This document shows positions 24,538-44,104 of a stretch of 64,000 nt of DNA, in pieces (the first letter of the stretch is position 1; each line of letters begins with the position of its first letter). The translations under genes were made by a program, and so were the position numbers. The notes beneath the pieces are model-generated. The model was not told where the DNA came from, did not search any database, and was given only the letters and a program-made list of their open reading frames with translations. The DNA lies in the sequence record OP557969.1; one strand, given 5' to 3'. The DNA comes from Escherichia phage ph0011.

Positions 24538-24699
24538 TGCGTAAAAGGATTTAGTACTGATTCAGAAAAAAGTCAAGGCGTTTTTAAAATTATGCGTTAA
24601 AAAAATGCATAGGTAATCCCTTGACTTTTTTGAAATAAAAGGGATTGGACTATGGCAAAATGCGTAGGGGGCTAAAGGGCGGGTAACCTTAGCGACTTC

Positions 24700-24750
24700 G
24701 ATAAAGGGGTATTACGAATAAAATGTTATTGACTTTTTATATAAATCGTA
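24700..24750 (+). promoter_or_regulatory. sigma70-type promoter heading the FamB array
   Basis: TTGACT, about 17-bp spacer, TATAAAAT; no further promoter seen for several kb. Confidence 0.5.
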
Positions 24751-24756
24751 TAAAAT

Positions 24757-24984
24757 ATGATTGATAATAATTTTAAGGGAGTCCCTGTGCGTATTTTAAC
24801 TCAAGCAGAACACCACGAAAGACTTATTAACAATATGGCTATGATAATGTATAAGTCACATAAACGTGGTATTGCCTATAAGCATGAATTAGTACTGGAA
24901 CTATTCATTGGGACTAACTATCAGGAAAGGTATGTCAACGATTGGATTTGGTATTTAATTGAAGATATAACGAGTAAACTATGA
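24757..24984 (+). CDS. FamB small protein
   Basis: Motif FIGTNYQERYV; first array member. Confidence 0.55.
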   Translation: MIDNNFKGVPVRILTQAEHHERLINNMAMIMYKSHKRGIAYKHELVLELFIGTNYQERYVNDWIWYLIEDITSKL

Positions 24985-25175
24985 TAATTTTAACTAAAGA
25001 AGAATATCAATCACTGTTACGTAAAAACTACGTAAAGATTTACAATACAGACACACACGTAGAACGAATGGAGTTATACCTTTTGATTACATTGGGAACT
25101 AACTATCAGGAAAGATGGGTGATTCAATATATGGATACATTGAAAAATAAAATATTGTCCACGAGGAAACAATGA
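24981..25175 (+). CDS. FamB small protein
   Basis: LGTNYQERWV; ATGA overlap. Confidence 0.55.
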   Translation: MIILTKEEYQSLLRKNYVKIYNTDTHVERMELYLLITLGTNYQERWVIQYMDTLKNKILSTRKQ

Positions 25176-25381
25176 AAACTATAACACGAACCAAATCATT
25201 AGGTCTTATCTTGAAATACATGGACTTAATGGTGGATATCAGCAAAGACCTTCCTAAAACTGCAATTGAAGTTGCAAGAGCAGAGTACCGTCTATTAGCA
25301 GTACTGAATACTAACTACCAGGATGAATATGTTGACGATTGGATTCTATCATTAAAAAAAGATATAAAGAGTAAACTATGA
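25172..25381 (+). CDS. FamB small protein
   Basis: LNTNYQDEYV; ATGA overlap. Confidence 0.55.
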   Translation: MKTITRTKSLGLILKYMDLMVDISKDLPKTAIEVARAEYRLLAVLNTNYQDEYVDDWILSLKKDIKSKL

Positions 25382-25590
25382 TTTTTTTAACGCCAGAAGA
25401 ATATAAGAAACGTTTCAATTCTGTCCAGATTGACATTTTACTTATATACAATTCAAATGCAGACCTTGGCTTATCAAGGGTATTAGAAAAAGATTTACTT
25501 ATGGGTGCATTTTTGGATACAGACTTTCAGGTGTATTATGTAGGGGAATACTTAATTGCACTTCAGAATTACATTAAGAGTAAACTATGA
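25378..25590 (+). CDS. FamB small protein
   Basis: LDTDFQVYYV; C-term YIKSKL; ATGA overlap. Confidence 0.55.
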   Translation: MIFLTPEEYKKRFNSVQIDILLIYNSNADLGLSRVLEKDLLMGAFLDTDFQVYYVGEYLIALQNYIKSKL

Positions 25591-25799
25591 ATAGCATTAA
25601 CTCAAATCAATATACCGAACGCGTCGCTGCAAGGCAACTTGAAATCCTCATATTATATGAAGAGGCTGATGATTTGAACTTAGCATCAGTATTGGAAAAT
25701 GAAATACTATTGGGTGCATTCCTTGGTACTGACTATCAGGAGCATTTCTTGAATGAGTATATAGTTGCCCTCCAGAAATACATTAAGAGCAAACTATGA
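25587..25799 (+). CDS. FamB small protein
   Basis: LGTDYQEHFL; close paralog of 25378; ATGA overlap. Confidence 0.55.
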   Translation: MNSINSNQYTERVAARQLEILILYEEADDLNLASVLENEILLGAFLGTDYQEHFLNEYIVALQKYIKSKL

Positions 25800-26014
25800 A
25801 ACATTTAAGTAATTACGAGAAGAATAAAATTATCGTTGCTGCAATAAACAAATATTTTACACTTCCTCACACAGAAGGTTTATGTGTAAGGGAACACAGG
25901 ATAAACACCACCGATATACGCATGATGGCTGTACTGGGGACTAACTTTCAGGAAGAGTATGTTGTTGCACACATAGTTGCCCTCACTGATTTAATAAGGG
26001 ACAAATGCAAATGA
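25796..26014 (+). CDS. FamB small protein
   Basis: LGTNFQEEYV; ATGA overlap. Confidence 0.55.
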   Translation: MKHLSNYEKNKIIVAAINKYFTLPHTEGLCVREHRINTTDIRMMAVLGTNFQEEYVVAHIVALTDLIRDKCK

Positions 26015-26229
26015 AAGACATAAACACTCAAGAATATCTTAAACGATTAGAACAAGGGAAGAACTTTAGACTTCAAGTTTACGATGATGAATCACTAACA
26101 TCCAATGAAAAGTATGTTTTACTAACAGACTCATCATTAATACCATTTGTGGGAACGAACTATCAGGAGGTTATGGTAGACAACCACATCACGGCCTTAA
26201 AATGTTATGTCAGGGATTTAGGTAAATGA
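26011..26229 (+). CDS. FamB small protein
   Basis: VGTNYQEVMV; start set at ATGA overlap. Confidence 0.5.
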   Translation: MKDINTQEYLKRLEQGKNFRLQVYDDESLTSNEKYVLLTDSSLIPFVGTNYQEVMVDNHITALKCYVRDLGK

Positions 26230-26483
26230 AACACTTAACACTGGATGAATATGAAACTATAGTTCGTAAACTAACCCCTATAGCAAGGATAGTCTACGAT
26301 GACCCCAGCCTTACATGGAACCAAATGCGAGCTAAAGTTAATGAGCTATGGTTGTTGTACTTTATGGGGACTCAATATCAAGAGAAATATTGTACCGAGT
26401 ATATTGAACAACTAATGAATGTTATACAGGATAAACTAGATGATTATTGGCTCACAAAGCATGAAGATTTTATCAGGGGTTGA
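26226..26483 (+). CDS. FamB small protein
   Basis: MGTQYQEKYC; ATGA overlap. Confidence 0.55.
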   Translation: MKHLTLDEYETIVRKLTPIARIVYDDPSLTWNQMRAKVNELWLLYFMGTQYQEKYCTEYIEQLMNVIQDKLDDYWLTKHEDFIRG

Positions 26484-26727
26484 GTATCAGACTGCCCTCT
26501 TCTCTCTTCTAAACACCCTCCGCACGAACAATAAACTTTATAATTCCAGTACTGCTGATATTGTCAACGCTGATGTATATCTTAATAAATTTATAGGGAC
26601 TAACTATCAAGAACTGTTTGTTTTACGATATATCTCTACATTAAGAAACGAAATATCAGATAAAACCCGTCAAGCCAGAAGAGAATGGAAGAATGCGACA
26701 AAGACTAAATCACAAAATGTATTGTAA
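26461..26727 (+). CDS. FamB small protein
   Basis: IGTNYQELFV; start at internal MKILSGVEY. Confidence 0.5.
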   Translation: MKILSGVEYQTALFSLLNTLRTNNKLYNSSTADIVNADVYLNKFIGTNYQELFVLRYISTLRNEISDKTRQARREWKNATKTKSQNVL

Positions 26728-26944
26728 ACTATTACAGGAACTGGCACAGAAACACTATGATACAATATCTTCCATATTACCCTATGATATCATGCGTTTA
26801 ATTCATAGTGAGGCAGAGATGTTAGTACTGATGACCGGTACTGATAAAATAGCAATCACCAGATCGATAGAGCAATATATTGATGCACACTGTCAATGTA
26901 TTAGAACTGAGATATGGAGGCGAGTAAATGAAAGTACTGAATGA
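26693..26944 (+). CDS. FamB-like small protein (divergent)
   Basis: MTGTDKIAIT in motif position; start uncertain. Confidence 0.4.
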   Translation: MRQRLNHKMYCKLLQELAQKHYDTISSILPYDIMRLIHSEAEMLVLMTGTDKIAITRSIEQYIDAHCQCIRTEIWRRVNESTE

Positions 26945-27143
26945 GTTTCAGTATCATTGGAGGTTACAAGCAATAAGAGGGAAAGTTGTTAGTATTTCTT
27001 TAGACAAGTCTATTGCACAAGAGGACAAATGTGTTATAATAGCTGAAATGAAGTTGGGTGCTTTCGTAGGGACAAACTATCAAAACATCTACACAGACGT
27101 ATTATTAAGTGCCTTACGCAACAAGGTGTTATCCAGAGAATGA
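26928..27143 (+). CDS. FamB small protein
   Basis: VGTNYQNIYT. Confidence 0.55.
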   Translation: MKVLNEFQYHWRLQAIRGKVVSISLDKSIAQEDKCVIIAEMKLGAFVGTNYQNIYTDVLLSALRNKVLSRE

Positions 27144-27358
27144 GAAAATTAATAGGTTACGAATATGTTAAGCTTCTGAAAACCTGTAGTAGTAGCAGGG
27201 TAAAGATTCAATCTGATAAGAGCATCCCTGCCAACCTAAAACATGTAATGATAGCTGAACTCTATGCAGGGGCACTCATAGGGACAAACTATCAACAAAT
27301 GTATATAGACATGTGGGTTGATGCATTAGTCAAGGAGATCCGAAGTAAATGCAAATGA
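27140..27358 (+). CDS. FamB small protein
   Basis: IGTNYQQMYI; ATGA overlap. Confidence 0.55.
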   Translation: MRKLIGYEYVKLLKTCSSSRVKIQSDKSIPANLKHVMIAELYAGALIGTNYQQMYIDMWVDALVKEIRSKCK

Positions 27359-27567
27359 TTAATTTAAGTAAAGATGAATATTATGTTCGTCTTGCAAAAA
27401 CTTATCCAGCACGTAACGCCGTTTATAATAGTAACATTATTGAACGCTCAAAGAAGTTGATCGTAGTAAATGAGATTAAGATGCTTTCAGTCTTAGGAAC
27501 AAACTATCAAGAGAAAGCTGTACTGTTGTTAATTGATGCCCTCAAGAGAGAGATACAAAGTAAATGA
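27355..27567 (+). CDS. FamB small protein
   Basis: LGTNYQEKAV; start at ATGA overlap. Confidence 0.5.
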   Translation: MINLSKDEYYVRLAKTYPARNAVYNSNIIERSKKLIVVNEIKMLSVLGTNYQEKAVLLLIDALKREIQSK

Positions 27568-27800
27568 TTCATTTATCTTACCATGAATATCAAAAACGTT
27601 TAAATGCATCAAGGAATATAAGGATTCAAATCTTCAATAATAAAAGATTGAAATCTGAAGCCAAAAAAATCAAAATGATAGAAGCAGAGTTATGCAACTT
27701 CCTGGGGACGAACTATCAGGATGATAAGGTAACAAACTATCTTAGAGAACTAATGATTAGTATCAAGAGTAAATGCAATGCTTTGGAGAATAAAAAATGA
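27564..27800 (+). CDS. FamB small protein
   Basis: LGTNYQDDKV; ATGA overlap. Confidence 0.55.
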   Translation: MIHLSYHEYQKRLNASRNIRIQIFNNKRLKSEAKKIKMIEAELCNFLGTNYQDDKVTNYLRELMISIKSKCNALENKK

Positions 27801-28054
27801 TCAATTTAAGTAAAGATGAATATACCGAGCGTATGACAAAAATTACGCACAAACGTAATACAATCTATCACAACCAAGAAATTCAACACAGTAAGAAAAT
27901 GATCATGATGCGTGAGTTAAAGATGGGTGTATTCTTGGGAACAAACTATCAAGAGCCAGAAGTAAATCGCTTAATTGCTGAGTTACTAATGGAAATCAAA
28001 GGTAAGCTGTACTTTTATCAAATGACCCAACCACTGAGGTGTACTGAACGATGA
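27797..28054 (+). CDS. FamB small protein
   Basis: LGTNYQEPEV; ATGA overlap. Confidence 0.55.
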   Translation: MINLSKDEYTERMTKITHKRNTIYHNQEIQHSKKMIMMRELKMGVFLGTNYQEPEVNRLIAELLMEIKGKLYFYQMTQPLRCTER

Positions 28055-28311
28055 GTACTATGAGTACTATGAATAAAATTAATAACATCAGATTATCAGA
28101 AAGATTTGATAGAATTGGTGAAGCCAGTAGAAGATACAATAGGGAATATGGTCATTTAAGCTTTTCTTTGGAAAAGAGATATGAACTTGAAGCAGAGTTT
28201 AAAATGCAGAGTCTCTTAGGTACACAGTACCAAGATCATTATGTAGAAAATTGGATTTCACTTCTAATCCAATCAATTTATGTAAGGAGTATTAAATGCA
28301 AAATGGAATGA
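28051..28311 (+). CDS. FamB small protein
   Basis: LGTQYQDHYV; ATGA overlap. Confidence 0.55.
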   Translation: MSTMSTMNKINNIRLSERFDRIGEASRRYNREYGHLSFSLEKRYELEAEFKMQSLLGTQYQDHYVENWISLLIQSIYVRSIKCKME

Positions 28312-28526
28312 TATACTTAACCAACGAAGAATTTCAAGAAAAAATGATTAAATCAGGTAAGATTACTCTTGAACATATACCAAATCAATCAGTATATGAA
28401 GTAGCAGCGAATGTATTGTTTCAGAAGCTACCTTACTTTCTGGGAACAGATAAACAAGAATTTTTGGTACAAAATATGATTGAGCATCTTCTAATGAGTA
28501 TTAGGGAAAAAGTAAATGCAACATGA
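28296..28526 (+). CDS. FamB small protein (LGTDKQ variant)
   Basis: FLGTDKQEFLV. Confidence 0.5.
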   Translation: MQNGMIYLTNEEFQEKMIKSGKITLEHIPNQSVYEVAANVLFQKLPYFLGTDKQEFLVQNMIEHLLMSIREKVNAT

Positions 28527-28776
28527 AATTATATACTTAACACATGATGAGTTAAAAGAAAGACTAGATAAATCCAAAAGACTTACAAATCAACTTCCTC
28601 ACAACCCAAACCAAACCCCAGCGGAAAGGAGTGCAGAAGTTTTATTCCAGTCTTTGTCATACCTTCTTGGAACTGATAGGCAGGAGTATCACGTTGAACG
28701 TATAATTAAATATCTTAAAATTACTATTCAGGAAAAGATATATGAACATCAATATAAAAATCTTGACGGTCAATGA
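28516..28776 (+). CDS. FamB small protein (LGTDRQ variant)
   Basis: LLGTDRQEYHV; close paralog of 28296. Confidence 0.5.
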   Translation: MQHEIIYLTHDELKERLDKSKRLTNQLPHNPNQTPAERSAEVLFQSLSYLLGTDRQEYHVERIIKYLKITIQEKIYEHQYKNLDGQ

Positions 28777-28993
28777 ATATCATAATATTATAATGAAGAC
28801 TAATAGTGCAATTTCTAAAAAATCAAATCCAAAATACATACTGGAGCACACATTTGAAGAACGTCAATTAGCTTTAGTTGAAGCAAAACTTCTTGCACTC
28901 CTAGGAACAAACTATCAAGAAGAGTACGTTAGAAAACTAATATACCTTTTAACTAAACACATCAGGAAAAGAAATGCAGTACTTGACCGATGA
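28742..28993 (+). CDS. FamB small protein
   Basis: LGTNYQEEYV. Confidence 0.5.
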   Translation: MNINIKILTVNEYHNIIMKTNSAISKKSNPKYILEHTFEERQLALVEAKLLALLGTNYQEEYVRKLIYLLTKHIRKRNAVLDR

Positions 28994-29183
28994 CGAATAC
29001 GGTGTTATCATCCTTGATGTTATCAATAAAGAATACCACAGGAAACAACGTTACGCTTGTTATGAAGATAAGCAGCTTTCTATAGCTGAACAACAATTAG
29101 TTCATTTATTAGGAACAAACTATCAAGAACAATGCACTGAACGTTACCTGTATCTTCTGTCGAGGAAAGCACAAAGATTATGA
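28974..29183 (+). CDS. FamB small protein
   Basis: LGTNYQEQCT. Confidence 0.5.
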   Translation: MQYLTDDEYGVIILDVINKEYHRKQRYACYEDKQLSIAEQQLVHLLGTNYQEQCTERYLYLLSRKAQRL

Positions 29184-29395
29184 AAATTTTAAGCCACAGT
29201 GAACAAACAGAATTGTTAATCTTTAATACAAGTAAATTCTTAAACATAACATTGTCTGATATAGATGAGGATGAAAAAGAGTTACTTAGAGCAGATTTAA
29301 GAGTTCTTTTATATATTGGAACTAACTTCCAAGAGCAATTCGTCGAGGACTACATCGATGAACTAAAGTCTGCTATCCAACGGAAATACAAATGA
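29180..29395 (+). CDS. FamB small protein
   Basis: IGTNFQEQFV; ATGA overlap. Confidence 0.55.
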   Translation: MKILSHSEQTELLIFNTSKFLNITLSDIDEDEKELLRADLRVLLYIGTNFQEQFVEDYIDELKSAIQRKYK

Positions 29396-29628
29396 AAATT
29401 CTTTCAAGTTCTGAATACCACGAACTATTAAGTAGTTTAATTCTAAAGTTGTTTATAACAAAAAGCACAAAATTACCGGATGAAGAAGTACGTGTTCTAG
29501 TAAGTGAAGTATATGTTAAAGCTACTCTAGGAACTAATTATCAAGAATGTAATATTAATGATTATATCAATGATCTAAAAAGGTATATACAAAACAAATG
29601 CGAATCATTACCGAAGAAGAATACCTAA
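29392..29628 (+). CDS. FamB small protein
   Basis: LGTNYQECNI; ATGA overlap. Confidence 0.55.
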   Translation: MKILSSSEYHELLSSLILKLFITKSTKLPDEEVRVLVSEVYVKATLGTNYQECNINDYINDLKRYIQNKCESLPKKNT

Positions 29629-29834
29629 CAATCATAAATGGACTATTTTTGAAGTTATTTGCCATTAACACATCAAAAATACCAGATACTGATAAAATTA
29701 TTAAGTTAAATGAAATCTACGTTCAAGCTACTCTAGGAACTAACTATCAAGATGCCAATATGTATAATTACATTAATACACTCAAAAGGGTAATAAAATT
29801 AAAATGTACAAACAGCCAATACACAAACCTCTAG
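29598..29834 (+). CDS. FamB small protein
   Basis: LGTNYQDANM; close paralog of 29392. Confidence 0.5.
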   Translation: MRIITEEEYLTIINGLFLKLFAINTSKIPDTDKIIKLNEIYVQATLGTNYQDANMYNYINTLKRVIKLKCTNSQYTNL

Positions 29835-30034
29835 GAACAGCAGAATACATTGAACTAATGGCAGCAAACTTCTCATCCTTTCAGAAACTGATGCAAGAAT
29901 CAAATAATGATTTAGAATATCATATCAAAAGTTCAGATTTAAGATTGCTACTCACTCTAGGAACAGACAGTCAGTACCAATTCGTACAGGAACATATTAG
30001 AGCACTTTTAAATGGCATCAGGGATAAACTATGA
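29804..30034 (+). CDS. FamB small protein
   Basis: LGTDSQYQFV. Confidence 0.5.
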   Translation: MYKQPIHKPLGTAEYIELMAANFSSFQKLMQESNNDLEYHIKSSDLRLLLTLGTDSQYQFVQEHIRALLNGIRDKL

Positions 30035-30246
30035 AGGTAATATCAAACCAAGAGTACTTGGCACTATTCAGAAAAAATAGTCAAGAATTTCTGAATATTG
30101 ATATGAGGACTGATATAAGTGAACTTCAGAAAAATCTTTTGCGTTCAGAGATGATAGTACTGACACTCTTAGGAACACAGCATCAAGAGAGAACTGTTGA
30201 TTCATATATTGAGATTCTTAAGAAGCTTATACAGGAAAAACTATGA
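30031..30246 (+). CDS. FamB small protein
   Basis: LGTQHQERTV; ATGA overlap. Confidence 0.55.
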   Translation: MKVISNQEYLALFRKNSQEFLNIDMRTDISELQKNLLRSEMIVLTLLGTQHQERTVDSYIEILKKLIQEKL

Positions 30247-30464
30247 GAATCATAACACAAACAGACATATTTAAGTTAGCAAGGGAACATACATCTGAAA
30301 TTGATGCTATAGTATCAAAAAGTTACAATGACCCTTATACACAAGATGTACACTACAATGAATTATGGGTGTATATACTTTTAGGTACAAATTATCAAGA
30401 GTACGCATTACAGAAGTATTTGTTAGCTTTACGTGATGCTACTGCTAATGGAGTGATTGTTTAA
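30243..30464 (+). CDS. FamB small protein
   Basis: LGTNYQEYAL; ATGA overlap. Confidence 0.55.
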   Translation: MRIITQTDIFKLAREHTSEIDAIVSKSYNDPYTQDVHYNELWVYILLGTNYQEYALQKYLLALRDATANGVIV

Positions 30465-30465
30465 T

Positions 30466-30708
30466 ATGAAAGTACTATCTGAATTACAAATGGGACAGAG
30501 ATTTAATAAGTACTATCATTTACTGAAACCTATACAGAGGATTAAATGTTCTTATGATGAGAAACAGGTTTTAATTTATGAGCACAAGTTCTTTGTATCA
30601 TTAGGTACGAATCATCAAGAGTACTATTTGAAGTTGTACTTGATTACATTAATAGATTTAATTCACTATAAAACCAAACAAGCTAATAAAGAGAAATATG
30701 AAAACTAA
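30466..30708 (+). CDS. FamB small protein
   Basis: LGTNHQEYYL; start at MKVLSELQ after upstream stop. Confidence 0.5.
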   Translation: MKVLSELQMGQRFNKYYHLLKPIQRIKCSYDEKQVLIYEHKFFVSLGTNHQEYYLKLYLITLIDLIHYKTKQANKEKYEN

Positions 30709-31042
30709 TATACAACTCAAGGTGTATAAATCCTATGAACATATATATATCAAAAGTAGTCTATGTAGAGATGTAATGGACTACAAGGGTAAGCCATTCA
30801 CAATTACGTATGATTCTTATATTAATGATTTATATATATCATTTGTTAATTACGAAAATAAAATATACAAGCACGTTGATATTAAAGATTTAAGTACTTT
30901 ATCTGAAGAGGAATACTTTCAAGAATCATTAGTATGGGATTTAGAATTTCCTATGCCATTAGTACATAAAATGATAGTACTAATGAAAGAAGCTAAACAG
31001 AAGCCTAATGGTGATTATGAAGAACACATCGTTGAGTATTAA
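30698..31042 (+). CDS. FamC protein (short form)
   Basis: Motif SEEEYFQESLVWD; embedded at end of FamB array. Confidence 0.55.
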   Translation: MKTNIQLKVYKSYEHIYIKSSLCRDVMDYKGKPFTITYDSYINDLYISFVNYENKIYKHVDIKDLSTLSEEEYFQESLVWDLEFPMPLVHKMIVLMKEAKQKPNGDYEEHIVEY

Positions 31043-31258
31043 ATGAAAAGATTATCATACAAAGATTACACCAATCTTATCAGGACTTTACAACCAGAAA
31101 TTAGAAGAATTAATTCTCTTCCTATATCTAATGAAGAATGTTCAGTACTGAAAGATGAGTTAATCTTAAAACACACAGTAGGAACAAACTATCAAGCTGA
31201 TAGTGTTCGATATTTAATTTGGGGGTTGATGTGTCAAATAAAGTCCAAGTGCTATTGA
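31043..31258 (+). CDS. FamB small protein
   Basis: VGTNYQADSV; starts immediately after FamC ORF stop. Confidence 0.55.
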   Translation: MKRLSYKDYTNLIRTLQPEIRRINSLPISNEECSVLKDELILKHTVGTNYQADSVRYLIWGLMCQIKSKCY

Positions 31259-31322
31259 CAGTACTTGACGGAGCTTTTCATTACTGATATAGTACACTAA
31301 CGTTAATCATAGGGTAGAAATT

Positions 31323-31568
31323 ATGTTAAAATTTTTAAATTTCCTTATCGTCTTGTGTATTGTTCTTGGGATTGCACCGTTTGTACTGGTGTATATGGAT
31401 TCAGATGAAATGCAAAAGATGAATTGCACAAGGACAGGACAGAGTAGAGAAGAGACGATTCTTATGCCTGTTACGGTTATTGTTAACAACATGCCCATTA
31501 CAAACATGGTCCCTACCCTAACGACAACGTACCAGTACTCTTGTACAGACGGGGAGAGGTGGAGATAA
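31323..31568 (+). CDS. small membrane protein (81 aa)
   Basis: N-terminal hydrophobic helix LNFLIVLCIVLGIAPFVLVYM; RBS TAGGGTAGAAATT. Confidence 0.5.
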   Translation: MLKFLNFLIVLCIVLGIAPFVLVYMDSDEMQKMNCTRTGQSREETILMPVTVIVNNMPITNMVPTLTTTYQYSCTDGERWR

Positions 31569-31891
31569 TGCGTAAGTTCAATTGTATTGTACGTAAGAAT
31601 TCATGTTATATTGTAGTAGCTGATTTTAATACAGGTTCTGGGTTGAAGATATTTGAGTACAGAAAATGTAATAATTCTTTTCATTGGAAATTAGGTGCAA
31701 GAAAAACAAAAACAATTTCAGTACCGAATTTATGTTCTATCTCTGAAGAAGAAGAGTTTCAGTACATGTTAGTACATGATGTTTCTTTAGGATTTACATT
31801 TGGAGATATGAAGGAAGTACAAAAGCAGATGATTGCACATTGTCATCTTCCAAAGAATTTTGTTCAACACGTATGTGAATTCCACATATAA
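31568..31891 (+). CDS. FamC-like protein
   Basis: SEEEEFQYMLVHD; start at MRKFN after RBS GAGGTGGAG. Confidence 0.5.
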   Translation: MRKFNCIVRKNSCYIVVADFNTGSGLKIFEYRKCNNSFHWKLGARKTKTISVPNLCSISEEEEFQYMLVHDVSLGFTFGDMKEVQKQMIAHCHLPKNFVQHVCEFHI

Positions 31892-31900
31892 GAGAATAAT

Positions 31901-32212
31901 ATGAAATTTAATATAGCAAAAACATCGAGTATATGTATTTTTGGTTATGCAGAAGAGTTAGGTGATATTGACATTCTTTTGTACAAAAAGGATGGTGTTA
32001 TGCATTTCAAGTACCAAGATGAAGAGGCAGACAATTATCCTTTACCTAATTTAGTACAAATACAGGAAGAGGAATTATTCCAGTACAGTTTAGTATACGA
32101 CATTGATATTTGCACGATGCCAGTATTAATTAATATACAAAAAGTGATGCTCGATATGTATGATAAGCTAATACAAGGTATGTCAGGGAGGATCATTGAA
32201 ATCGATATATAA
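31901..32212 (+). CDS. FamC protein
   Basis: QEEELFQYSLVYD. Confidence 0.55.
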   Translation: MKFNIAKTSSICIFGYAEELGDIDILLYKKDGVMHFKYQDEEADNYPLPNLVQIQEEELFQYSLVYDIDICTMPVLINIQKVMLDMYDKLIQGMSGRIIEIDI

Positions 32213-32408
32213 GAATTTACCTAATGCATATATGTTGAAGTACAAAGAGTTTATTAAAGATGTATATGTAGATCCTTTCAATATAAAATTATCAGAGTTC
32301 GATGTATTATTTTATCTAGGGACAATAGTACAGGACCAATACGTTAATAATCTAATAAGGTGTTTGAAAAAGGAGATACAATGCAGACCCAAATGTACAA
32401 AAAAATAA
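32196..32408 (+). CDS. FamB-like small protein (variant)
   Basis: FYLGTIVQDQYV. Confidence 0.45.
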   Translation: MKSIYKNLPNAYMLKYKEFIKDVYVDPFNIKLSEFDVLFYLGTIVQDQYVNNLIRCLKKEIQCRPKCTKK

Positions 32409-32644
32409 ACCGTTATTTGTATGCATCAAAGTACAGGGATTTTTGTTTACAAGGAGGTGAGGACGATTTCGGTCTGAGGTTATCGGAATTTAATATGTTA
32501 TTTTATCTTGGTACATCCGTACAAGAAGAAATGGTTCAGAAATTTCTCAATAACCTTGTACAAAAAATTAATATTCAAATTATGATGCATAAATTACAGA
32601 ATGAGATAAATGAATATGAATCTAGAAATAGTTCAGGATCTTAA
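32381..32644 (+). CDS. FamB-like small protein (variant)
   Basis: FYLGTSVQEEMV; start at MQTQMYKK after RBS AAGGAG. Confidence 0.45.
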   Translation: MQTQMYKKINRYLYASKYRDFCLQGGEDDFGLRLSEFNMLFYLGTSVQEEMVQKFLNNLVQKINIQIMMHKLQNEINEYESRNSSGS

Positions 32645-33005
32645 AAAAGTAATATTTCTTTTGAATACAAGAAGCTCTTTATATAAGGAGTTCAAAGATA
32701 AGGATAGTTCTTTTAAACCAGTATGTATAGAATTCAATGATTTAATTACAGATGCATTGTTTGAATTTTCCGAGAAATATCAAGATACAGTGTTTGGTGT
32801 TAGGAATGCTATTCATCCAATTACAGGCACAAGGAAGATAACGTTATCTCATTTTACATTTGACAATAAAGATTTATTCAGTTATAATCCCAGTACATCT
32901 TTATATTTTATTCCAAAAGGAGACAAGAATAGTCCGATTCATTACGGATGGATTATATCTTATGTAGTGCAAGGAAAGGAGTATCCTATCAAATGGCACG
33001 ATTAG
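32610..33005 (+). CDS. hypothetical protein (131 aa)
   Basis: ORF overlapping upstream stop; no family motif. Confidence 0.45.
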   Translation: MNMNLEIVQDLKKVIFLLNTRSSLYKEFKDKDSSFKPVCIEFNDLITDALFEFSEKYQDTVFGVRNAIHPITGTRKITLSHFTFDNKDLFSYNPSTSLYFIPKGDKNSPIHYGWIISYVVQGKEYPIKWHD

Positions 33006-33145
33006 GACAGGAAGATTATAGTTTAAATATATTATTAAGAAATATTAATGCGGATTATTGTGTATGGGTTAAGAATCGAGACATGATGTATTATGATTTT
33101 TATTTAGATTATGCCATCAAACGCTTTTTAAGAGAAGAATATTAA
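32993..33145 (+). CDS. micro-protein (50 aa)
   Basis: Start at MARLGQEDY with RBS AAGGAG about 10 nt upstream. Confidence 0.35.
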   Translation: MARLGQEDYSLNILLRNINADYCVWVKNRDMMYYDFYLDYAIKRFLREEY

Positions 33146-33321
33146 TGAAAGTGGTTAATACAAAAGCAATAAATGATTTAAATGATTCTTTATTAGTAAG
33201 TATTAAGTTGTATTATAATATTCATTTAAAGGGTGGTATTAACGATTTTAGTTATTACTTAAGTGCAATATCACAAGAGCATTTAAATTATCAAGATCAT
33301 TTATTACATCCAAATCATTAA
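33145..33321 (+). CDS. micro-protein (about 58 aa)
   Basis: ATG overlapping upstream stop; hand-read, frame not verified. Confidence 0.25.
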   Translation: MKVVNTKAINDLNDSLLVSIKLYYNIHLKGGINDFSYYLSAISQEHLNYQDHLLHPNH

Positions 33322-33329
33322 GGCAAATT

Positions 33330-33890
33330 ATGAATGAGATAGAGTTATTATCACACAAGATTAGTACAATAGCTACAGTACTGAACAACAAAAATAAAGT
33401 ACATAGTTCCTTTTTAAGAATTAATAAAGTTGGTAGTAGTTTATATTTGGAAGTAAAAGCGGGTTTTGCAGGACAGTACAATGATAAAATCAAAGAAGAA
33501 GTTAAGGGAAATGAAGATGCTTTCATTGAGGTTTGTGCAACAGTTGGTTCAAATCCAATTTCAGTATCACCGTTAATGCGAAATGAAAATTCAGAATTTG
33601 ATTCCAGTTTCGAAGGTTATTTGTGGTACAATTATGGTGATAATTATTTTATATATCAGAATTCCAAAACGAATTATAGTGAAGAAGGTATAAAATTCAT
33701 TGATCCTTACAATGAAGCAGAAGTATTTCAGAAATCCCTAATATACAATACAAATCAAATGAAGTATCTTATGTTGTTTAGTACAATGCATTTGAATCCA
33801 TTGAAAGATAATTTAAAATTTTTCATTCGTTTAGAATTAGTTGATATTACTTATGATCTTTTAATCCAAGGAAGTAGTTATGAAGTATAA
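33330..33890 (+). CDS. FamC protein
   Basis: NEAEVFQKSLIYN. Confidence 0.55.
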   Translation: MNEIELLSHKISTIATVLNNKNKVHSSFLRINKVGSSLYLEVKAGFAGQYNDKIKEEVKGNEDAFIEVCATVGSNPISVSPLMRNENSEFDSSFEGYLWYNYGDNYFIYQNSKTNYSEEGIKFIDPYNEAEVFQKSLIYNTNQMKYLMLFSTMHLNPLKDNLKFFIRLELVDITYDLLIQGSSYEV

Positions 33891-34194
33891 AATGATGTAT
33901 ACACCATCATTAGTATATGTAGAATTAGAATCAAATGATAATGGGTGGAATTTCATTAAACATATCGATACCAATACATGGTACATGGCTCACTTGGATA
34001 ATAATGTGGTATCAGACCATTTTATGGATTTCAATATCTTAGATGAAGATGAATTTTTCCAAATGCAATTGGTGCTTGACACAAATGGTTTTGATATGGT
34101 ATTATTAAAGAATATACAGAAAGCTGTTGATGAATTAATAGCTGAACATAATTTGAGCGAAATAAGGATTAGTTATGACCTCGAAGTACTGTGA
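33880..34194 (+). CDS. FamC protein (short)
   Basis: DEDEFFQMQLVLD. Confidence 0.5.
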   Translation: MKYKMMYTPSLVYVELESNDNGWNFIKHIDTNTWYMAHLDNNVVSDHFMDFNILDEDEFFQMQLVLDTNGFDMVLLKNIQKAVDELIAEHNLSEIRISYDLEVL

Positions 34195-34525
34195 GTTTGA
34201 AATTAATAAGTTAAGAGAATGGTTTTATAATATTGAAATTGAGGCCATTCCTTATCATACATATGAACAAAGTGATTTACAATGTATTGATATTAGGGAG
34301 TTGTACAAATATTATCAAAGTGCGTTAGAGATGCATAAATTATTTTTGAGTACGGATTTCTTTATGCAGTATAATTTTGAGGAATATAATAATTATAACT
34401 TAGTACAGAAATACGTAGTAGCAAAGTACATGTACATTCAAGGTATTAAAGGTTGTATTGAATTCAATACTGTTCTTGCTTTAGTTGAGGTAATTTTATG
34501 TACAGCATGTGCATATCTAATTTAG
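34175..34525 (+). CDS. hypothetical protein (116 aa)
   Basis: ORF in array context; no FQ motif recognised. Confidence 0.45.
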   Translation: MTSKYCEFEINKLREWFYNIEIEAIPYHTYEQSDLQCIDIRELYKYYQSALEMHKLFLSTDFFMQYNFEEYNNYNLVQKYVVAKYMYIQGIKGCIEFNTVLALVEVILCTACAYLI

Positions 34526-35016
34526 AGTTTAGTTTAGATGCAGCCTTTAAATTTGCACATAAGATAGAAACAATATATAGTTTTTTTAGTGAAGTTTATG
34601 AAGTTTGTGCTAAACGATATATCGATACAATAGACATTAGCAATAAGTTCGATGTATGGCACAAAACAATCCAAAGCAAAAAGCAGTGTGCAGCAGTTTT
34701 TAGTGTTTTATCATTTAATCCCAGCAATTGTTACCCAGAGAAGCATGAACGTTATCCCAATGACGACATGTGGTTTGTGTACAAAGAAGATGCTGATATG
34801 TCGTCATTTGAAGTTCCTGATAATTTTGATATCAGTGATTTAACAGAAGAGTGGTGGTTCCAGCAGAATTTAGTACATGATGATATTGATTTATTTTTCT
34901 ATATCGTGTTCAAAATACTTTATCACAACAATATAGTTAAAGATAGTGTATCGTTTTCATGTCTATATATTGATGAGTTGTTCGAAGATATCAAAAATCT
35001 CAAGCCTGTATCGTAA
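34498..35016 (+). CDS. FamC protein
   Basis: TEEWWFQQNLVHDD. Confidence 0.55.
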   Translation: MYSMCISNLEFSLDAAFKFAHKIETIYSFFSEVYEVCAKRYIDTIDISNKFDVWHKTIQSKKQCAAVFSVLSFNPSNCYPEKHERYPNDDMWFVYKEDADMSSFEVPDNFDISDLTEEWWFQQNLVHDDIDLFFYIVFKILYHNNIVKDSVSFSCLYIDELFEDIKNLKPVS

Positions 35017-35070
35017 GATATGGGCTTTTTTGTTTGACTCAAGTACAAATGAATGGTACAATGTGAAATC
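35005..35070 (+). promoter_or_regulatory. internal terminator-like hairpin with U-run followed by sigma70-type promoter
   Basis: GGGCTTTTTTGTTTGACTC then TTGACT, 17-bp spacer, TACAAT. Confidence 0.45.
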
Positions 35071-35087
35071 ATTTTAAGGAGAACCCT

Positions 35088-35636
35088 ATGGAAAATTTTC
35101 AAATACCACAAGATTACGATACAGCGAAAGAGATGGTACACAAGGTTCATTACATTTTTAATGAATTAATTATTGCAAATTCATCCTGTATGCAAATTGA
35201 GTTAAAGGGTATTAATAGTGAAGAAGTTTTTTTGGCTTCTCCAAGTTCAATTATTCCGTTGTATGGTATGGACCGTTTATGGTTCATGAGAGATGCACCA
35301 ATTGACAGGTACAAAATACAAAAAAAATCAGAGAATGATTTTCTTTATGATTATTTTAATATTTCATTACAAGCACACGATATAAGTACAATGAGTGCAG
35401 AGGAATATTTTCAGCACAGTACAGTGTATAGTCCAGAAGAAATCTTTGTTGTTATGCTTGTTGCAAAATTGAGTACTGTTGATTTTGGGACGTACCCAAA
35501 TAAATCATTCAAGATTATTATTCCTGCATTTGTTGATCTTTATGATTTCATTGTGCACAAGAAAGAAAGTACAGTGTACGATATGCAGCGTTCAAATATC
35601 AGTTTAATTGCAGTAAGTGCAGGGGAATTAAAATGA
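35088..35636 (+). CDS. FamC protein
   Basis: SAEEYFQHSTVYSPEE; RBS AAGGAG. Confidence 0.6.
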   Translation: MENFQIPQDYDTAKEMVHKVHYIFNELIIANSSCMQIELKGINSEEVFLASPSSIIPLYGMDRLWFMRDAPIDRYKIQKKSENDFLYDYFNISLQAHDISTMSAEEYFQHSTVYSPEEIFVVMLVAKLSTVDFGTYPNKSFKIIIPAFVDLYDFIVHKKESTVYDMQRSNISLIAVSAGELK

Positions 35637-36241
35637 ACATAGACCAATTAATGAAGTACAGTAAAAGTACAGTTCCAGTACTAAGTAAAGTGTTAGATGC
35701 CTTCACTGCTAAGTACCCTGAAGGTTCAGAGTTAAATATTCCTTTTACTACACCAGGGATTGATGATACTTACATGGTACACATTGGTAGTTCAGGTATT
35801 GTTTTGAAGCAAAAGTACAGTGATAGTGAATATTATGGTTTGAAACTGGATAAAATTTCAGGAGAGAAGACACCTTTTGAGTTTTGGATTCCGAATAGTA
35901 TTGAATCATGGAATACACATATTAATAAGAGAGACGAAGGTAATATTTCTCTTGTAAATTATAAGGAAAAAAGATTTGACGTATTTTATTATTACAGTAC
36001 AGATACGTTTCCAGAAGAGATTTATTTAAATTCAGAGATGTATGAAGATATTGAATCATTTTTCTTTCAGTTATCATTGGTACATGATATCATGCCATTG
36101 CAAGCGTTCAGGGATGAAATAAATTTAGCGAAAGAGATTTCGGATATGTTACCTGAATTTAGTGTTCTTTATGGTAGTAGAGCTTTACCTGAAAATGTGT
36201 ATATAGAATTTATTTCTTGTGTTCAAGGATTGAATATATAA
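35633..36241 (+). CDS. FamC protein
   Basis: DIESFFFQLSLVHD; ATGA overlap. Confidence 0.55.
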   Translation: MNIDQLMKYSKSTVPVLSKVLDAFTAKYPEGSELNIPFTTPGIDDTYMVHIGSSGIVLKQKYSDSEYYGLKLDKISGEKTPFEFWIPNSIESWNTHINKRDEGNISLVNYKEKRFDVFYYYSTDTFPEEIYLNSEMYEDIESFFFQLSLVHDIMPLQAFRDEINLAKEISDMLPEFSVLYGSRALPENVYIEFISCVQGLNI

Positions 36242-36242
36242 T

Positions 36243-36437
36243 ATGAACGAAGATGATATCAAAAAAAGGCATACGAAGTTTGAACTGCTCCCTGACGAAA
36301 TCCACATTGATATAGTTAATTTTAACATCAAAGCGTCCTTGCATCCTATATCACAAGATGATTTTGACAACAGAGTGCTTAACATAGTGGTGATTTTGTG
36401 CTATAATCATTTCAGTGAATATTTTAACAAAAGATGA
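36243..36437 (+). CDS. small hypothetical protein (64 aa)
   Basis: ORF immediately after upstream stop. Confidence 0.4.
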   Translation: MNEDDIKKRHTKFELLPDEIHIDIVNFNIKASLHPISQDDFDNRVLNIVVILCYNHFSEYFNKR

Positions 36438-36444
36438 GGTACAT

Positions 36445-36966
36445 ATGTATCAGCACACGTACAATACATCATATGAGTATGGGTACAGCATTTTGAAGAT
36501 TATCAAAGCGTTAGAGGGTGGATTGCTTAGTCATAAGTACACCAGAGTAGGTGACAATTGGTTCAGAAATGATGATGATGAGTTCAGAAGTCATAAAATC
36601 GTTTACAGTAATAATTACAGTGCTAATTATCTTCAGGATGTGGTTATGTGCTTTGAATACGTGTTACAGTTCAGGGGTTCCATCAGACCAGAGTTAAGAG
36701 AACACATGTACATTCGATACCTACCAATGCTTGAGGATGAGAAATCAATATTCAATTCAGTACACCACAGAGTACGAGATAGAACATTCAGGAATATTTT
36801 GGAAGATGAAGCTGCCTATTTTCAGCGATCATTGATTGATGCTCCTGATGTGTTACAGATGCAGAATTTGTATAATGTATTAGATGCGAACATCGATACT
36901 GATATCTTTTTTTCCTTAAGTGATTATGAAACATGTTTGGAAGATTTAAAGGAAATAGGATTATGA
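36445..36966 (+). CDS. FamC protein
   Basis: DEAAYFQRSLIDAPD; start at MYQHTYN after RBS GAGGT. Confidence 0.5.
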   Translation: MYQHTYNTSYEYGYSILKIIKALEGGLLSHKYTRVGDNWFRNDDDEFRSHKIVYSNNYSANYLQDVVMCFEYVLQFRGSIRPELREHMYIRYLPMLEDEKSIFNSVHHRVRDRTFRNILEDEAAYFQRSLIDAPDVLQMQNLYNVLDANIDTDIFFSLSDYETCLEDLKEIGL

Positions 36967-37307
36967 GTGGATTTACAGTATATATAGTAAACGTCAGTAC
37001 AGATGGTAGTTTAATTGAATTTGATGTAGTTGATGACGATGATAATGCATATGGTATTAAGGTGCAAGACAATGTTGTGCAGTTCAGTACAAGAACAAAT
37101 TACGAAAATCCAGTTCCTGTTCCTAATTTCATAGAAGACGAAGCTGTACGATTCCAATACGAAACTGCCTTTGACAATATAGCGATGCATATTATTATGC
37201 AACACAGTTTAGTTCAATTAGTTCCTTTATTTAGACAAAATGTATATGTACATGAATTGTCGATTAATAACGTTCAAAGTTCCGTTTTGTTCGGCACAAA
37301 TATGTAA
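36963..37307 (+). CDS. FamC-like protein
   Basis: DEAVRFQYETAFD; ATGA overlap. Confidence 0.5.
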   Translation: MSGFTVYIVNVSTDGSLIEFDVVDDDDNAYGIKVQDNVVQFSTRTNYENPVPVPNFIEDEAVRFQYETAFDNIAMHIIMQHSLVQLVPLFRQNVYVHELSINNVQSSVLFGTNM

Positions 37308-37316
37308 GGAAGGATA

Positions 37317-37859
37317 ATGAGTTTATTAGATACCATAGAAAAAGACAGAAGTGCCATTAAGAGATTAAAAAATCTGGTTCTGTGTATTGTGAACAACGTT
37401 GAAAAGTTTGAAGTCCAAGGAAGAATTGGTGATATTTCACATACAGGAATAAAATCCCTGAAGTCAGATTTATTAATTCATAAGGAAGATAAATTATTAT
37501 TTGTATTGAGTTCAGATTTATTGGTTGCAAGTAATGGTTTCAATTCGGTATCAACACAAGATGGTAGTACTGGATTATATCTATCACAGGGTGTACAGAC
37601 GAATGAACATAAGTGTTTTAGTTCAAGAGTACAGAATCCCTTTAAGTTTAATACAGAACAAGCTACAGAGCTTTTTGAGGCTTCAGAAGAGATGTTATTT
37701 CAGTACAAAATGGTCTATACAGATTTTGAAATACGATGCCTATACGCTGTTAAGCATTATGTACAAGAGTTCGAAGATTTAAATTATCTTTTAGTTCGAA
37801 CGAATACGAAGAACATTGACATATTAGAAGATTACATTTCAACAGTTGTTAGTGTGTAA
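37317..37859 (+). CDS. FamC protein
   Basis: SEEMLFQYKMVYTD; RBS TAAGGAAGGA. Confidence 0.6.
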   Translation: MSLLDTIEKDRSAIKRLKNLVLCIVNNVEKFEVQGRIGDISHTGIKSLKSDLLIHKEDKLLFVLSSDLLVASNGFNSVSTQDGSTGLYLSQGVQTNEHKCFSSRVQNPFKFNTEQATELFEASEEMLFQYKMVYTDFEIRCLYAVKHYVQEFEDLNYLLVRTNTKNIDILEDYISTVVSV

Positions 37860-37863
37860 TGGG

Positions 37864-38034
37864 ATGTTGCTTATGAAGGAGTTATTTGATGAACAGTTCA
37901 ATGTATTAATGGATAATATTCTTTTTTATAGCCTTGGTAGTAAACGAGGAAATCGTGCTTACAATATAGATTACATATTAACTGTGTTGAGTTCACAGTA
38001 CACATATGCTGTGCAGAGGACATATTATGAATAG
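37864..38034 (+). CDS. micro-protein (about 56 aa)
   Basis: Start uncertain between several in-frame Met codons. Confidence 0.3.
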   Translation: MLLMKELFDEQFNVLMDNILFYSLGSKRGNRAYNIDYILTVLSSQYTYAVQRTYYE

Positions 38035-38212
38035 TTATAGTGGTGTTGCTAAGGAGAAGTTAAATTGTAGTTTAGATTTTGGCTTAAATGATTTTCTTAC
38101 GTGCACAATGTTCAGGAATGATGATTATGAACAATCCGTAATTTCGTTGTATAGATATTTTGAAATAATTTACACAAGATACCTTAGAAGGTTAGAGGGA
38201 TTGGAATTATGA
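38027..38212 (+). CDS. micro-protein (61 aa)
   Basis: ATGA overlap with upstream stop. Confidence 0.35.
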   Translation: MNSYSGVAKEKLNCSLDFGLNDFLTCTMFRNDDYEQSVISLYRYFEIIYTRYLRRLEGLEL

Positions 38213-38427
38213 TTTATGAACAAAAAGTACCAAGTGGTTATAGTGTTGATGGTTTTGAATTCATGATGGATTTGGTTTTAAAGAATACATTAGTAGTACA
38301 CCGTGCATTACCGGACCATGTAGATAGTGCGGTTCAACGAATAATGAATGTATACGAGATGACGAGTCGAAAGCTTTGTGCAATGAAAAGGATTGAAGAA
38401 ATCAAGCGTTCTAGGATGAATAATTAG
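38209..38427 (+). CDS. small hypothetical protein (72 aa)
   Basis: ATGA overlap; RBS GAGGGA. Confidence 0.45.
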   Translation: MIYEQKVPSGYSVDGFEFMMDLVLKNTLVVHRALPDHVDSAVQRIMNVYEMTSRKLCAMKRIEEIKRSRMNN

Positions 38428-43216: not shown

Positions 43217-43739
43217 CATTAATGATTATGATGCATTACAAGATTTATCAAAAAAGATTCGCACTATCGTACCAGTACTGAAGAAATGCAGTACTGGATT
43301 AATCGATCCTAGTACAGTTATTAGTGAGAAGTACAATTTTCATAAACTGTTACAAGGGAATGGTGCATTCCAGAAGTGTGAGATACGTGAGACACACGTA
43401 ATTGATACATCATTGTTTTCTATTGGTGCACCTGTGTCGAATAATACTATTTTCCTAGACAACGCTGGAAATATTCAACAATTAACATTTAAGAAAAGGA
43501 AAAAGAACAATAACATTGGTGTGTATGCGATGAAGTGGGGTCAACCTGATTTGAAGCGTGAAATTCACATCCCTAAGTACAATTACAATGCATTTGACGA
43601 ACAGTGTTTTCAACTATCGTGTACTGACCCTGACTATGCTATCATTCAGTTCTATATGGAATTGCAGATTGCATTTAACAGTAATTTGTATATTAACTTA
43701 TTGGCGATGAACATCGATGAAGTATTCAAAAACATTTAA
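43203..43739 (+). CDS. FamC-like protein (divergent)
   Basis: FDEQCFQLSCTDPD. Confidence 0.45.
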   Translation: MRKININDYDALQDLSKKIRTIVPVLKKCSTGLIDPSTVISEKYNFHKLLQGNGAFQKCEIRETHVIDTSLFSIGAPVSNNTIFLDNAGNIQQLTFKKRKKNNNIGVYAMKWGQPDLKREIHIPKYNYNAFDEQCFQLSCTDPDYAIIQFYMELQIAFNSNLYINLLAMNIDEVFKNI

Positions 43740-43935
43740 TCGAATTGAATACATGAGAACTGTGAGTGCAGTGTGGGACATATGGTTCACTACTAAACCA
43801 AAAATGGATTACCATGACTTTAAGCTATTGTTCTTCGTTGGCTCTAACAAACAGGATGTTGCAATGAAGGGTTATATTCAGCACTTACAGGAACTAATCC
43901 AGAAGAGAATATATGAAAATAATAGACCAAGATGA
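43717..43935 (+). CDS. FamB-like small protein (variant)
   Basis: FFVGSNKQDVAMKGYI; start uncertain. Confidence 0.4.
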   Translation: MKYSKTFNRIEYMRTVSAVWDIWFTTKPKMDYHDFKLLFFVGSNKQDVAMKGYIQHLQELIQKRIYENNRPR

Positions 43936-44104
43936 TATTGCTAAACTATTCAATATATATTCTTCTAAAATGATGCAAATCGACTCATATAGTACTGAAT
44001 TCAAAGAATTAAAAGTACTGATGTATTTGGGTACACAACATCAGGAACAAGTTGTTAAAGAATATATTGATTCATTACAGAAGGATATACGTTATGTACA
44101 ATGA
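43913..44104 (+). CDS. FamB small protein
   Basis: LGTQHQEQVV. Confidence 0.5.
   Translation: MKIIDQDDIAKLFNIYSSKMMQIDSYSTEFKELKVLMYLGTQHQEQVVKEYIDSLQKDIRYVQ

Follow-up and report, generated by a model that had tools for sequence, protein, structure and literature searches.

The LGTNYQE array and its protein family

The 64,000-nucleotide stretch of Escherichia phage ph0011 analysed here (OP557969.1; the whole stretch is referred to as the window) carries, at 24757-31258, a dense tandem array of small genes encoding one family of paralogous mini-proteins, which we name after its motif, LGTNYQE. The array is a real, selected gene family. Its genes are already known as deposited hypothetical proteins grouped as phrog_4148, while the family, the array structure and the fold are undescribed in the literature we searched; this included the Asteriusvirus, RaK2-like and CBB genome papers, which mention paralogues in passing and never this family. 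The LGTNYQE family is the one already catalogued, from genomes such as 121Q and PBECO4, as phrog_4148 with the overlapping phrog_28039. That entry comes without function, structure or genomic description, and it does not cover the organisation, position, fold and evolution of the array given here.

Twenty-seven family open reading frames (ORFs) lie back to back on the + strand between 24757 and 30708, and one more occupies 31043-31258, beyond a non-family ORF of 114 residues (30698-31042) that interrupts the array. An earlier note on this DNA, made from the letters alone, had estimated about 28 family ORFs in the span; 28 is indeed the count, though the span includes this one non-member. The ORF lengths, first given as 64-86 residues, need correcting to 64-95 residues by the longest-ORF rule. 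Searching with a profile of the block adds ORFs at 32196, 32360, 43717 and 43913, which brings the members in the window to 32. Those listed earlier as scattered copies (31043, 32196, 32381, 43717 and 43913) are confirmed, 32381 being an in-frame ATG of the 32360 ORF. The genes are given below with their motif variants, their E-values (E) in a leave-one-out profile test and, where present, the 4-nucleotide (nt) overlap of start and preceding stop codon (ATGA overlap).

24787..24984, +: member 1; start GTG 24787 (longest ORF from 24757); E 9e-13
24981..25175, +: member 2 (LGTNYQE); ATGA overlap; E 1.4e-15
25172..25381, +: member 3 (LNTNYQD); ATGA overlap; E 3.4e-16
25378..25590, +: member 4 (LDTDFQV); ATGA overlap; E 6e-14; sister of member 5, 46% identity
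25587..25799, +: member 5 (LGTDYQE); ATGA overlap; E 8e-18
25796..26014, +: member 6 (LGTNFQE); E 9e-18; orthologue missing in 121Q and A4
26005..26229, +: member 7 (VGTNYQE); E 5e-18; alternative start 26011 would give an ATGA overlap; orthologue missing in phAPEC6, 121Q and A4
26226..26483, +: member 8 (MGTQYQE); ATGA overlap; E 8.5e-21
26440..26727, +: member 9 (IGTNYQE); family-consistent start 26461; E 2e-12
26693..26944, +: divergent, doubtful member (MTGTDK, 7-residue insertion); fails leave-one-out; AlphaFold predicted local distance difference test score (pLDDT) 79, three helices
26928..27143, +: member 11 (VGTNYQN); GGAGG Shine-Dalgarno; E 4e-15
27140..27358, +: member 12 (IGTNYQQ), the modelled protein; E 2e-18
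27349..27567, +: member 13; alternative start 27355; E 1.5e-19
27564..27800, +: member 14; ATGA overlap; E 6e-19
27797..28054, +: member 15; ATGA overlap; E 9e-21
28051..28311, +: member 16 (LGTQYQD); alternative start 28069; E 1e-11
28296..28526, +: member 17 (LGTDKQE); alternative start 28308; E 1e-10; sister of member 18, 47% identity
28516..28776, +: member 18 (LGTDRQE); E 1e-9
28742..28993, +: member 19; E 1e-15; missing in 121Q
28974..29183, +: member 20; E 5.5e-13
29180..29395, +: member 21 (IGTNFQE); ATGA overlap; E 6e-21
29392..29628, +: member 22; ATGA overlap; E 1e-22; sister of member 23, 44% identity
29598..29834, +: member 23; E 9e-20
29804..30034, +: member 24 (LGTDSQY); E 1.4e-14
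30031..30246, +: member 25 (LGTQHQE); ATGA overlap; E 2e-17
30243..30464, +: member 26; ATGA overlap; E 1.4e-11
30457..30708, +: member 27 (LGTNHQE); likely start ATG 30466; E 9e-11
30698..31042, +: non-member, 114 residues, of a second paralogous family (FamC); clusters with 9 other ORFs of 103-141 residues; phrog_13866
31043..31258, +: member 28 (VGTNYQA); E 1e-16
32196..32408, +: scattered member (LGTIVQD); E 3e-13
32360..32644, +: scattered member (LGTSVQE); in-frame ATG 32381; E 1.5e-8
43717..43935, +: scattered member (VGSNKQD); E 3e-8
43913..44104, +: scattered member (LGTQHQE); E 9e-14

In a MAFFT alignment of the 32 window members (A1), whose mean pairwise identity is ~25%, four columns are at least 90% conserved, three in the motif (G, T and Q) and a Leu in the last helix. 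The conserved motif on which the earlier note had staked its claim is therefore present on formal alignment. Profiles recognise 31 of the 32 members when each is left out in turn (E 1e-8 to 1e-22), and 31 of 32 match phrog_4148 along the full length of that profile (best E 1.8e-25; member 27140 aligns at E 3.5e-20, residues 1-72 on a 74-position profile). Alignment, leave-one-out profiles and phrog_4148 matches all support the proposal of a single paralogous family, and, apart from the corrections given here, the other elements of the earlier interpretation also held up at the level of the sequence. The ORF that the profile of the other members does not recognise, at 26693-26944, keeps collinear orthologues at 62-81% identity, with a ratio of nonsynonymous to synonymous substitution (dN/dS) of 0.28.

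Written loosely as G[TS][NDQ]xQ, the motif fits 27 of the 32 members, and as [LIVFM]GT[NDQ][YFH]Q[EDQ] it fits 21. The latter is the seven-residue core of the ten-residue pattern first described, which in full was over-specified (7/32). The C-terminal I-x-x-K pattern, also put forward as conserved, holds for 21 of the 32.

No annotated homologue of the family was found in Pfam, NCBIfam, PADLOC or the PDB sequences, PADLOC returning just single-member hits at E 0.01 or weaker. One of the 32 members hits Syd/SUKH-2 at E 0.044, below threshold, and the model described next is all-helical. AlphaFold2, supplied with A1, gives for member 27140-27358 a pLDDT of 97.5 and a predicted template modelling score (pTM) of 0.82, with helices at residues 6-14, 17-25, 31-45 and 52-71 and a beta-bridge that joins residue 2 to residue 49, the motif Thr. 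According to this model the LGTNYQE motif forms the turn that leads into the last helix and caps its N-terminus, and a short N-terminal strand is clamped to it. No neighbour of the four-helix model was found in the PDB, and the predicted fold is apparently new, a candidate for structural confirmation as such.

Nonsynonymous divergence (pN), pooled over 97 orthologue gene pairs, is lowest at L4, E8, Y9, L12, E40, L41, L46, G48, T49, Q52 (0.000), Y55, W59, L63 (0.005), I67 and K70. The low-pN positions of helix 4 – 55, 59, 63, 67 and 70 – are spaced at i/i+4, with variable positions between them; this pattern, taken together with G48, T49, Q52 and L63, fits a buried face plus a structural turn. 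The isoelectric point ranges from 4.4 to 9.9 across members, 11 being acidic and 16 basic, and no family member reaches the hydrophobicity of a membrane protein; the products would be soluble proteins of roughly 70 residues.

Genomic setting and expression

A megablast search with 24700-31300 returned 35 phage records at 83-89% identity, all of them Asteriusvirus-group jumbo phages of E. coli or Salmonella (among them fEgEco12, PBECO4, 121Q, phAPEC6 and Sharanji), and every gene beneath the match is annotated 'hypothetical protein'. Judged by this similarity, the window belongs to an Asteriusvirus-like (PBECO4/121Q/fEgEco12) jumbo coliphage, with relatives of ~350 kb. In fEgEco12, direct terminal repeats of 20,993 bp have been experimentally confirmed (PMC13070987), and the orthologous array (g057 onward) begins at 21091, 98 nt past the repeat. 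Local BLAST places position 1 of fEgEco12 at window position 3358 and its repeat end at ~24689. By homology with fEgEco12, the array would begin ~100 nt into the unique region that follows a terminal repeat of roughly 21 kb. It lies outside the terminal redundancy, with the repeat end as mapped in fEgEco12, and not inside it as in modules of the SPO1/T5 type.

The region homologous to the fEgEco12 repeat (3358-24689) holds ~40 near-consensus sigma70 promoters, many of them matching at 12/12 positions, at a density of 6.0 per kb in intergenic sequence and 0.6 per kb in coding sequence. Many read TTGACA-16/17-TATAAT, a TTGCAA-16-TATAAT variant recurs, and nearly each one occupies a short gap of 20-60 nt ahead of a single small gene. 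In this the region has the look of an SPO1/T5-type immediate-early module. At the array this architecture changes abruptly to one promoter for ~28 genes without gaps. In PA5oct, a related jumbo phage, the terminal-repeat genes form the early class and are transcribed by the host RNA polymerase (PMC7318152). Since the array adjoins the promoter-rich repeat region and the repeat genes of PA5oct are early, its own temporal class is likely to be early or delayed-early. No Asteriusvirus transcriptome was found in the literature searched.

A gap of 219 nt at 24538-24756 precedes the array and is nearly identical in fEgEco12, 121Q and phAPEC6. It contains the first two features below; the third lies in the first real gap after the array (31259-31322).

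24561..24633, +: hairpin with U-run; RNA fold -23.6 kcal/mol, z -4.3, 0/200 shuffles as stable
24729..24756, +: sigma70-like promoter TTGACT-16-TAAAAT; 10/12 consensus match
31265..31293, +: next promoter-like site, TTGACG-17-TATAGT with TG

Conservation of the promoter at 24729-24756 extends to four other phages, and its A4 equivalent (TTGACA-17-TATGAT) stands directly before the array of that phage. Promoter-like sites inside the block do not exceed those of shuffled sequence (41 vs 47.8 +/- 8.6 expected), and the proposal that a single promoter heads the array is upheld. No + strand terminator was found in 24757-31258, and the site at 31265-31293 probably marks the end of the transcription unit. 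The hairpin, which precedes the inferred inner repeat end (~24689) by ~60 nt, is likely to be a terminator or an insulator; it could act on transcripts of the repeat region, or be a structure tied to the repeat boundary, DNA entry or packaging. In phage A4 (ON286972.1 25480-26298) an extra 272-residue hypothetical gene, A4_316, is placed between the last repeat-region gene and the array, which keeps its own promoter downstream of the insertion.

Because the -10 element ends at 24756 and orthologues begin at the aligned codon, the first gene is taken to start at GTG 24787 and not at ATG 24757. This GTG is preceded by AAGGGAG (a GGGAG Shine-Dalgarno), orthologues use ATG at the same place with a gene of 198 nt, and it is almost certainly the true start. 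ATGA overlaps of 4 nt join 14 junctions when the longest ORFs are taken and 16 of 26 when starts are chosen to agree with the family, which qualifies the earlier statement that most starts overlap the previous stop in this way. Most other junctions overlap by 11-35 nt (family-consistent starts) or 8-44 nt (longest-ORF rule); with family-consistent starts there is one gap of 1 nt and one of 14 nt, and none larger over 6 kb. At least 3 nt of AGGAGG occur at -18 to -4 of 25 of the 28 starts (35% of random positions), and at least 4 nt at 32% of starts (10% of random positions). Weak Shine-Dalgarno words (AAGAG, AGGA, GGAG) fall within the codons with which the upstream gene specifies its conserved C-terminal I-x-x-K motif, which would thereby be under double constraint. 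This anatomy suggests that the array is expressed as a single transcript with translational coupling.

Evolution and function

A tblastn search found the family in 33 phage records, all of the Escherichia/Salmonella Asteriusvirus type, and HMMER, run without filters against 1.84 billion representative proteins, yielded only 98 clusters. All named HMMER hits belong to Asteriusvirus-group phages or to E. coli assemblies, where they sit on contigs of roughly 350 kb; the traceable divergent representatives map to other E. coli jumbo phages (Turkey5, JNE01, EC.P1, UB), and the divergent representative P0084 has a weak 40% match only, to UE-S1. On the evidence of these searches the family is genus-restricted, confined to the Asteriusvirus-like phage group. 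One representative, P0082 (269 residues; EC.P1 338002-338808, UB 185239-186045), carries an N-terminal family domain (residues 1-63) fused to a domain of ~170 residues that shares about 40% identity with a hypothetical protein of the Klebsiella phages RaK2, K64-1 and RCIP0023. The fused domain belongs to no known family and has no known function, and provides no functional hint.

Contiguous copies number 27 in the window, 28 in fEgEco12, 23 in 121Q and 20 in A4, the range across five genomes being 20-28. Orthologues are collinear and mostly one-to-one, yet their identity varies abruptly along the array, between 55% and 99%, and individual genes are present or absent between phages. The 28742 ORF, for example, is 95% identical to the fEgEco12 and A4 versions and missing in 121Q, while the 28974 ORF is 94% identical to its A4 counterpart and 65% to that of fEgEco12. 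Such mosaic identity points to frequent allele exchange, and the copy-number differences, mosaicism and gene presence or absence together resemble the dynamics of an arms race. Relative to fEgEco12, dN/dS is 0.37 pooled and 0.07-1.0 per gene. By structural element the pooled orthologue ratio lies at 0.23-0.58 throughout and is lowest at the motif; these ratios indicate that the family genes are under purifying selection.

Neighbouring paralogues are more alike than distant ones (29.6% vs 25.3% identity; permutation p below 1e-4), which agrees with the local duplication and divergence proposed earlier. The related claim that variants sit together is right for LGTDKQ and LGTDRQ, which are the adjacent sisters at 47% identity, and wrong for the MTGTDK ORF, which lies elsewhere. 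No paralogue pair exceeds 51% identity, so the duplications are old, and amplification for gene dosage was ruled out for the same reason.

The earlier note proposed no function. We favour the reading that the array is an early polycistronic library of diversified intracellular binders used in host takeover or anti-defence, and put its probability at about 0.5. One long message would be made from the single host-type (sigma70) promoter just past the terminal-repeat region, and translation would pass from gene to gene by way of overlapping stop and start codons and weak embedded Shine-Dalgarno words. The conserved residues would build the core and the capping turn, while exposed positions, net charge and C-terminal tails vary by copy. 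A conserved scaffold with diversified surfaces suggests that each copy most likely acts inside the cell as a stoichiometric binder of a target of its own. Together the binders would serve as host-takeover or anti-defence inhibitors, analogous in their working to bacterial poly-immunity arrays and to the multigene families found at the genome ends of large eukaryotic DNA viruses.

The pre-early genes of T5 are a small early gene cluster at a terminally redundant end, with host-type promoters and novel host-hijacking proteins. The host-takeover module of SPO1 comprises 24 genes and takes up most of a 13.2 kb terminal redundancy (PMC10531801). The array resembles both in being a cluster of small genes with a host-type promoter near a terminally redundant genome end. 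However, the genes of those modules are unrelated, usually have a promoter each and lie inside the repeat, whereas the LGTNYQE genes form a single family just outside it, with one promoter for ~28 genes. Among eukaryotic viruses, MGF110/360/505 of African swine fever virus (ASFV), the Bcl-2-like and ankyrin families of poxviruses and US22 of herpesviruses are terminal tandem paralogues of low identity with a conserved scaffold and varying copy number, and are assumed to have a role in host range or immune evasion. US22 has been linked to immunity proteins (PMC3113570). Tandem paralogy near the genome end and a copy number that varies between isolates are shared with the array, although the viral families belong to a different host domain, have no sequence or fold relation to it and encode much larger proteins. 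Poly-immunity arrays (SUKH, Imm) likewise consist of tandem, diverged small paralogues, read as alternatives that neutralise many toxins (PMC3113570). The LGTNYQE array differs from them in its predicted all-alpha fold (alpha+beta in SUKH), in its tandem length (27 genes vs ~6 in SUKH arrays) and in having no linked toxin or nuclease gene, no Pfam domain being found in the neighbours tested, which are other small hypothetical families.

Several points weigh against a library of binders. Pooled dN/dS is below 1 at every position class, with no direct sign of positive selection; the lack of recent duplicates implies that the array is not an ongoing gene accordion; and the searches turned up no resemblance to a known inhibitor, either in structure or in sequence. 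Besides lying outside the repeat, the array has a weaker promoter than the repeat genes do, which makes its temporal class uncertain, and small proteins easily escape virion mass spectrometry. A poly-inhibitor library of ~30 copies of a new four-helix mini-fold with diversified surfaces, produced together as infection begins, each copy of which neutralises a different variant of a host defence effector, toxin or competing-phage factor, and whose set is updated by allele swapping between co-infecting phages, is a tentative proposal that we regard as possible but doubtful. If true, it would be a bacterial-virus counterpart of the poxvirus and ASFV terminal families, at a copy number unreported for phages in the literature searched.

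A single hetero-oligomeric assembly built from the paralogues, or one phage machine for which they supply alternative subunits, seems to us unlikely. The inferred co-transcription and coupling would favour the equimolar synthesis typical of complex subunits, gene order is conserved across the genus, and tandem-array paralogues can, as a general argument, form one complex (PMC3113570). Such an assembly would nevertheless have to accommodate 20-28 copies among closely related phages, individually dispensable genes and both strongly acidic and strongly basic members. Virions yielded no member: the phAPEC6 orthologues gp467c-gp489c are absent from its 62 virion proteins (PMC7247149 Table 1), where small proteins are easily missed. 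Small nucleic-acid-binding regulators, that is, helix-turn-helix-like DNA or RNA binders retuning host or phage expression, are improbable candidates, given eleven acidic members, the lack of any Pfam or NCBIfam helix-turn-helix hit at threshold or of a fold or profile match, and a motif that in the model is a buried turn and helix cap, not a recognition helix. Half of the members are, on the other hand, basic, and single members have weak, non-significant hits to SarA- and AdeR-type regulators; the consensus E..L...LGT.YQE..V...I..L...I..K also bears what we take to be a superficial likeness to the helix-turn-helix signatures of LuxR or sigma region 4, which we counted for this alternative. 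We give similarly little credence to an evolutionary by-product, in which unequal recombination left duplicates with little function per copy in a permissive region near the genome end. At least four unrelated paralogue expansions do crowd this same region, copies are gained and lost between phages, and a dN/dS of 0.37 is fairly relaxed, some pairs reaching 0.9-1.0. Yet all 27 consecutive reading frames are intact, order and orthology are kept though orthologue proteins differ by up to 45%, core positions are near-invariant among orthologues (Q52 and L63 above) and the duplicates are ancient (at most 51% identity), hence long retained.

That the block also acts in cis, with ~15-27 phased copies of GGR-ACW-AAC-TAT-CAR, one per ~215 nt beside the terminal-repeat boundary, as sites bound by a phage or host factor for operon regulation, DNA entry or packaging, appears very improbable. 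Where 0.09 occurrences of the 15-nt word GGRACWAACTATCAR would be expected there are 15, solely within family genes and always in phase, and motif codon choice departs from the genome norm: AAC encodes Asn in 17/20 cases (29% elsewhere, p 3e-8), GGA or GGG encodes Gly in 22/29 (p 4e-4), and Tyr TAT and Glu GAG are marginally biased. The bias is confined to the G-T-N-Y-Q-E codons (24910-31195), other conserved columns following genome usage. Codon-pair context does not explain the AAC bias, and translational accuracy as a cause fits AAC but not TAT or GGA/GGG. However, amino-acid constraint already accounts for most of the word, Rfam matches nothing in the block or elsewhere in the window, and a hard nucleotide constraint was rejected, synonymous divergence (pS) of orthologues at the motif being normal (0.32 vs 0.23-0.35 elsewhere). 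A role of the motif as recombination anchor was likewise rejected, as change points in the identity tracks of four phages are not enriched there (22% within 25 nt vs 23% expected); at gene junctions the enrichment is unconvincing (31% vs 23%). Given the normal motif pS and the lack of breakpoint enrichment, any nucleotide-level selection would be weak.

Jumbo coliphages of this group are in development for therapy, and more than 80% of their genes are without known function; the 32 family genes make up about 2% of the genome. Were the copies diversified inhibitors, as the binder library supposes, they would provide, ready to use, a collection of small proteins that bind E. coli targets and would explain part of the host-range differences between near-identical phages. 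Phages would then be using the terminal multigene family strategy of large eukaryotic viruses. A confident model without PDB neighbour is in itself a candidate new fold for structural work, and the mapped anatomy (promoter, hairpin, junctions, first start) improves the annotation of >30 deposited genomes that list hypothetical proteins only.

Neighbouring gene families

The LGTNYQE family is the largest paralogue expansion in the window. At 1126-3082, at the right end of the unique genome and directly before the repeat start, there is a tandem array of 10 paralogues of 60-77 residues with an N-terminal HKEFYT and a C-terminal LIFRY (alignment A2). Kinship between this family and the LGTNYQE family was rejected (hhalign probability 0.7%). 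Two more paralogue families, both of unknown function, are interleaved at 30698-48700. The ten ORFs of the phrog_13866 family (103-141 residues) begin at 30698, 31541, 31901, 38520, 38942, 39593, 42007, 45247, 45596 and 47465, and the ten of the phrog_19795 family (146-186 residues) at 33330, 40190, 40657, 41100, 41567, 42321, 42761, 46535, 47005 and 48212.

Around the inferred left genome end, ~1.5 kb (3083-4629) are almost free of ORFs, holding one of ~40 residues at 3513-3635. The sign of the GC skew flips within this segment, a perfect 12/12 sigma70 promoter at 3753-3780 is followed by 850 nt without ORF, and a short 16/24-nt tandem repeat lies at 4186-4267. Rfam gave no match in 3083-4629; the segment may encode a non-coding RNA or act in cis at the terminus. 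On the other side, the first gene after the LGTNYQE array (31323-31568), which has the promoter-like site at 31265-31293 as its own, encodes 81 residues with a strongly hydrophobic N-terminal segment, MLKFLNFLIVLCIVLGIAPFVLVY, and its product may be a membrane protein.

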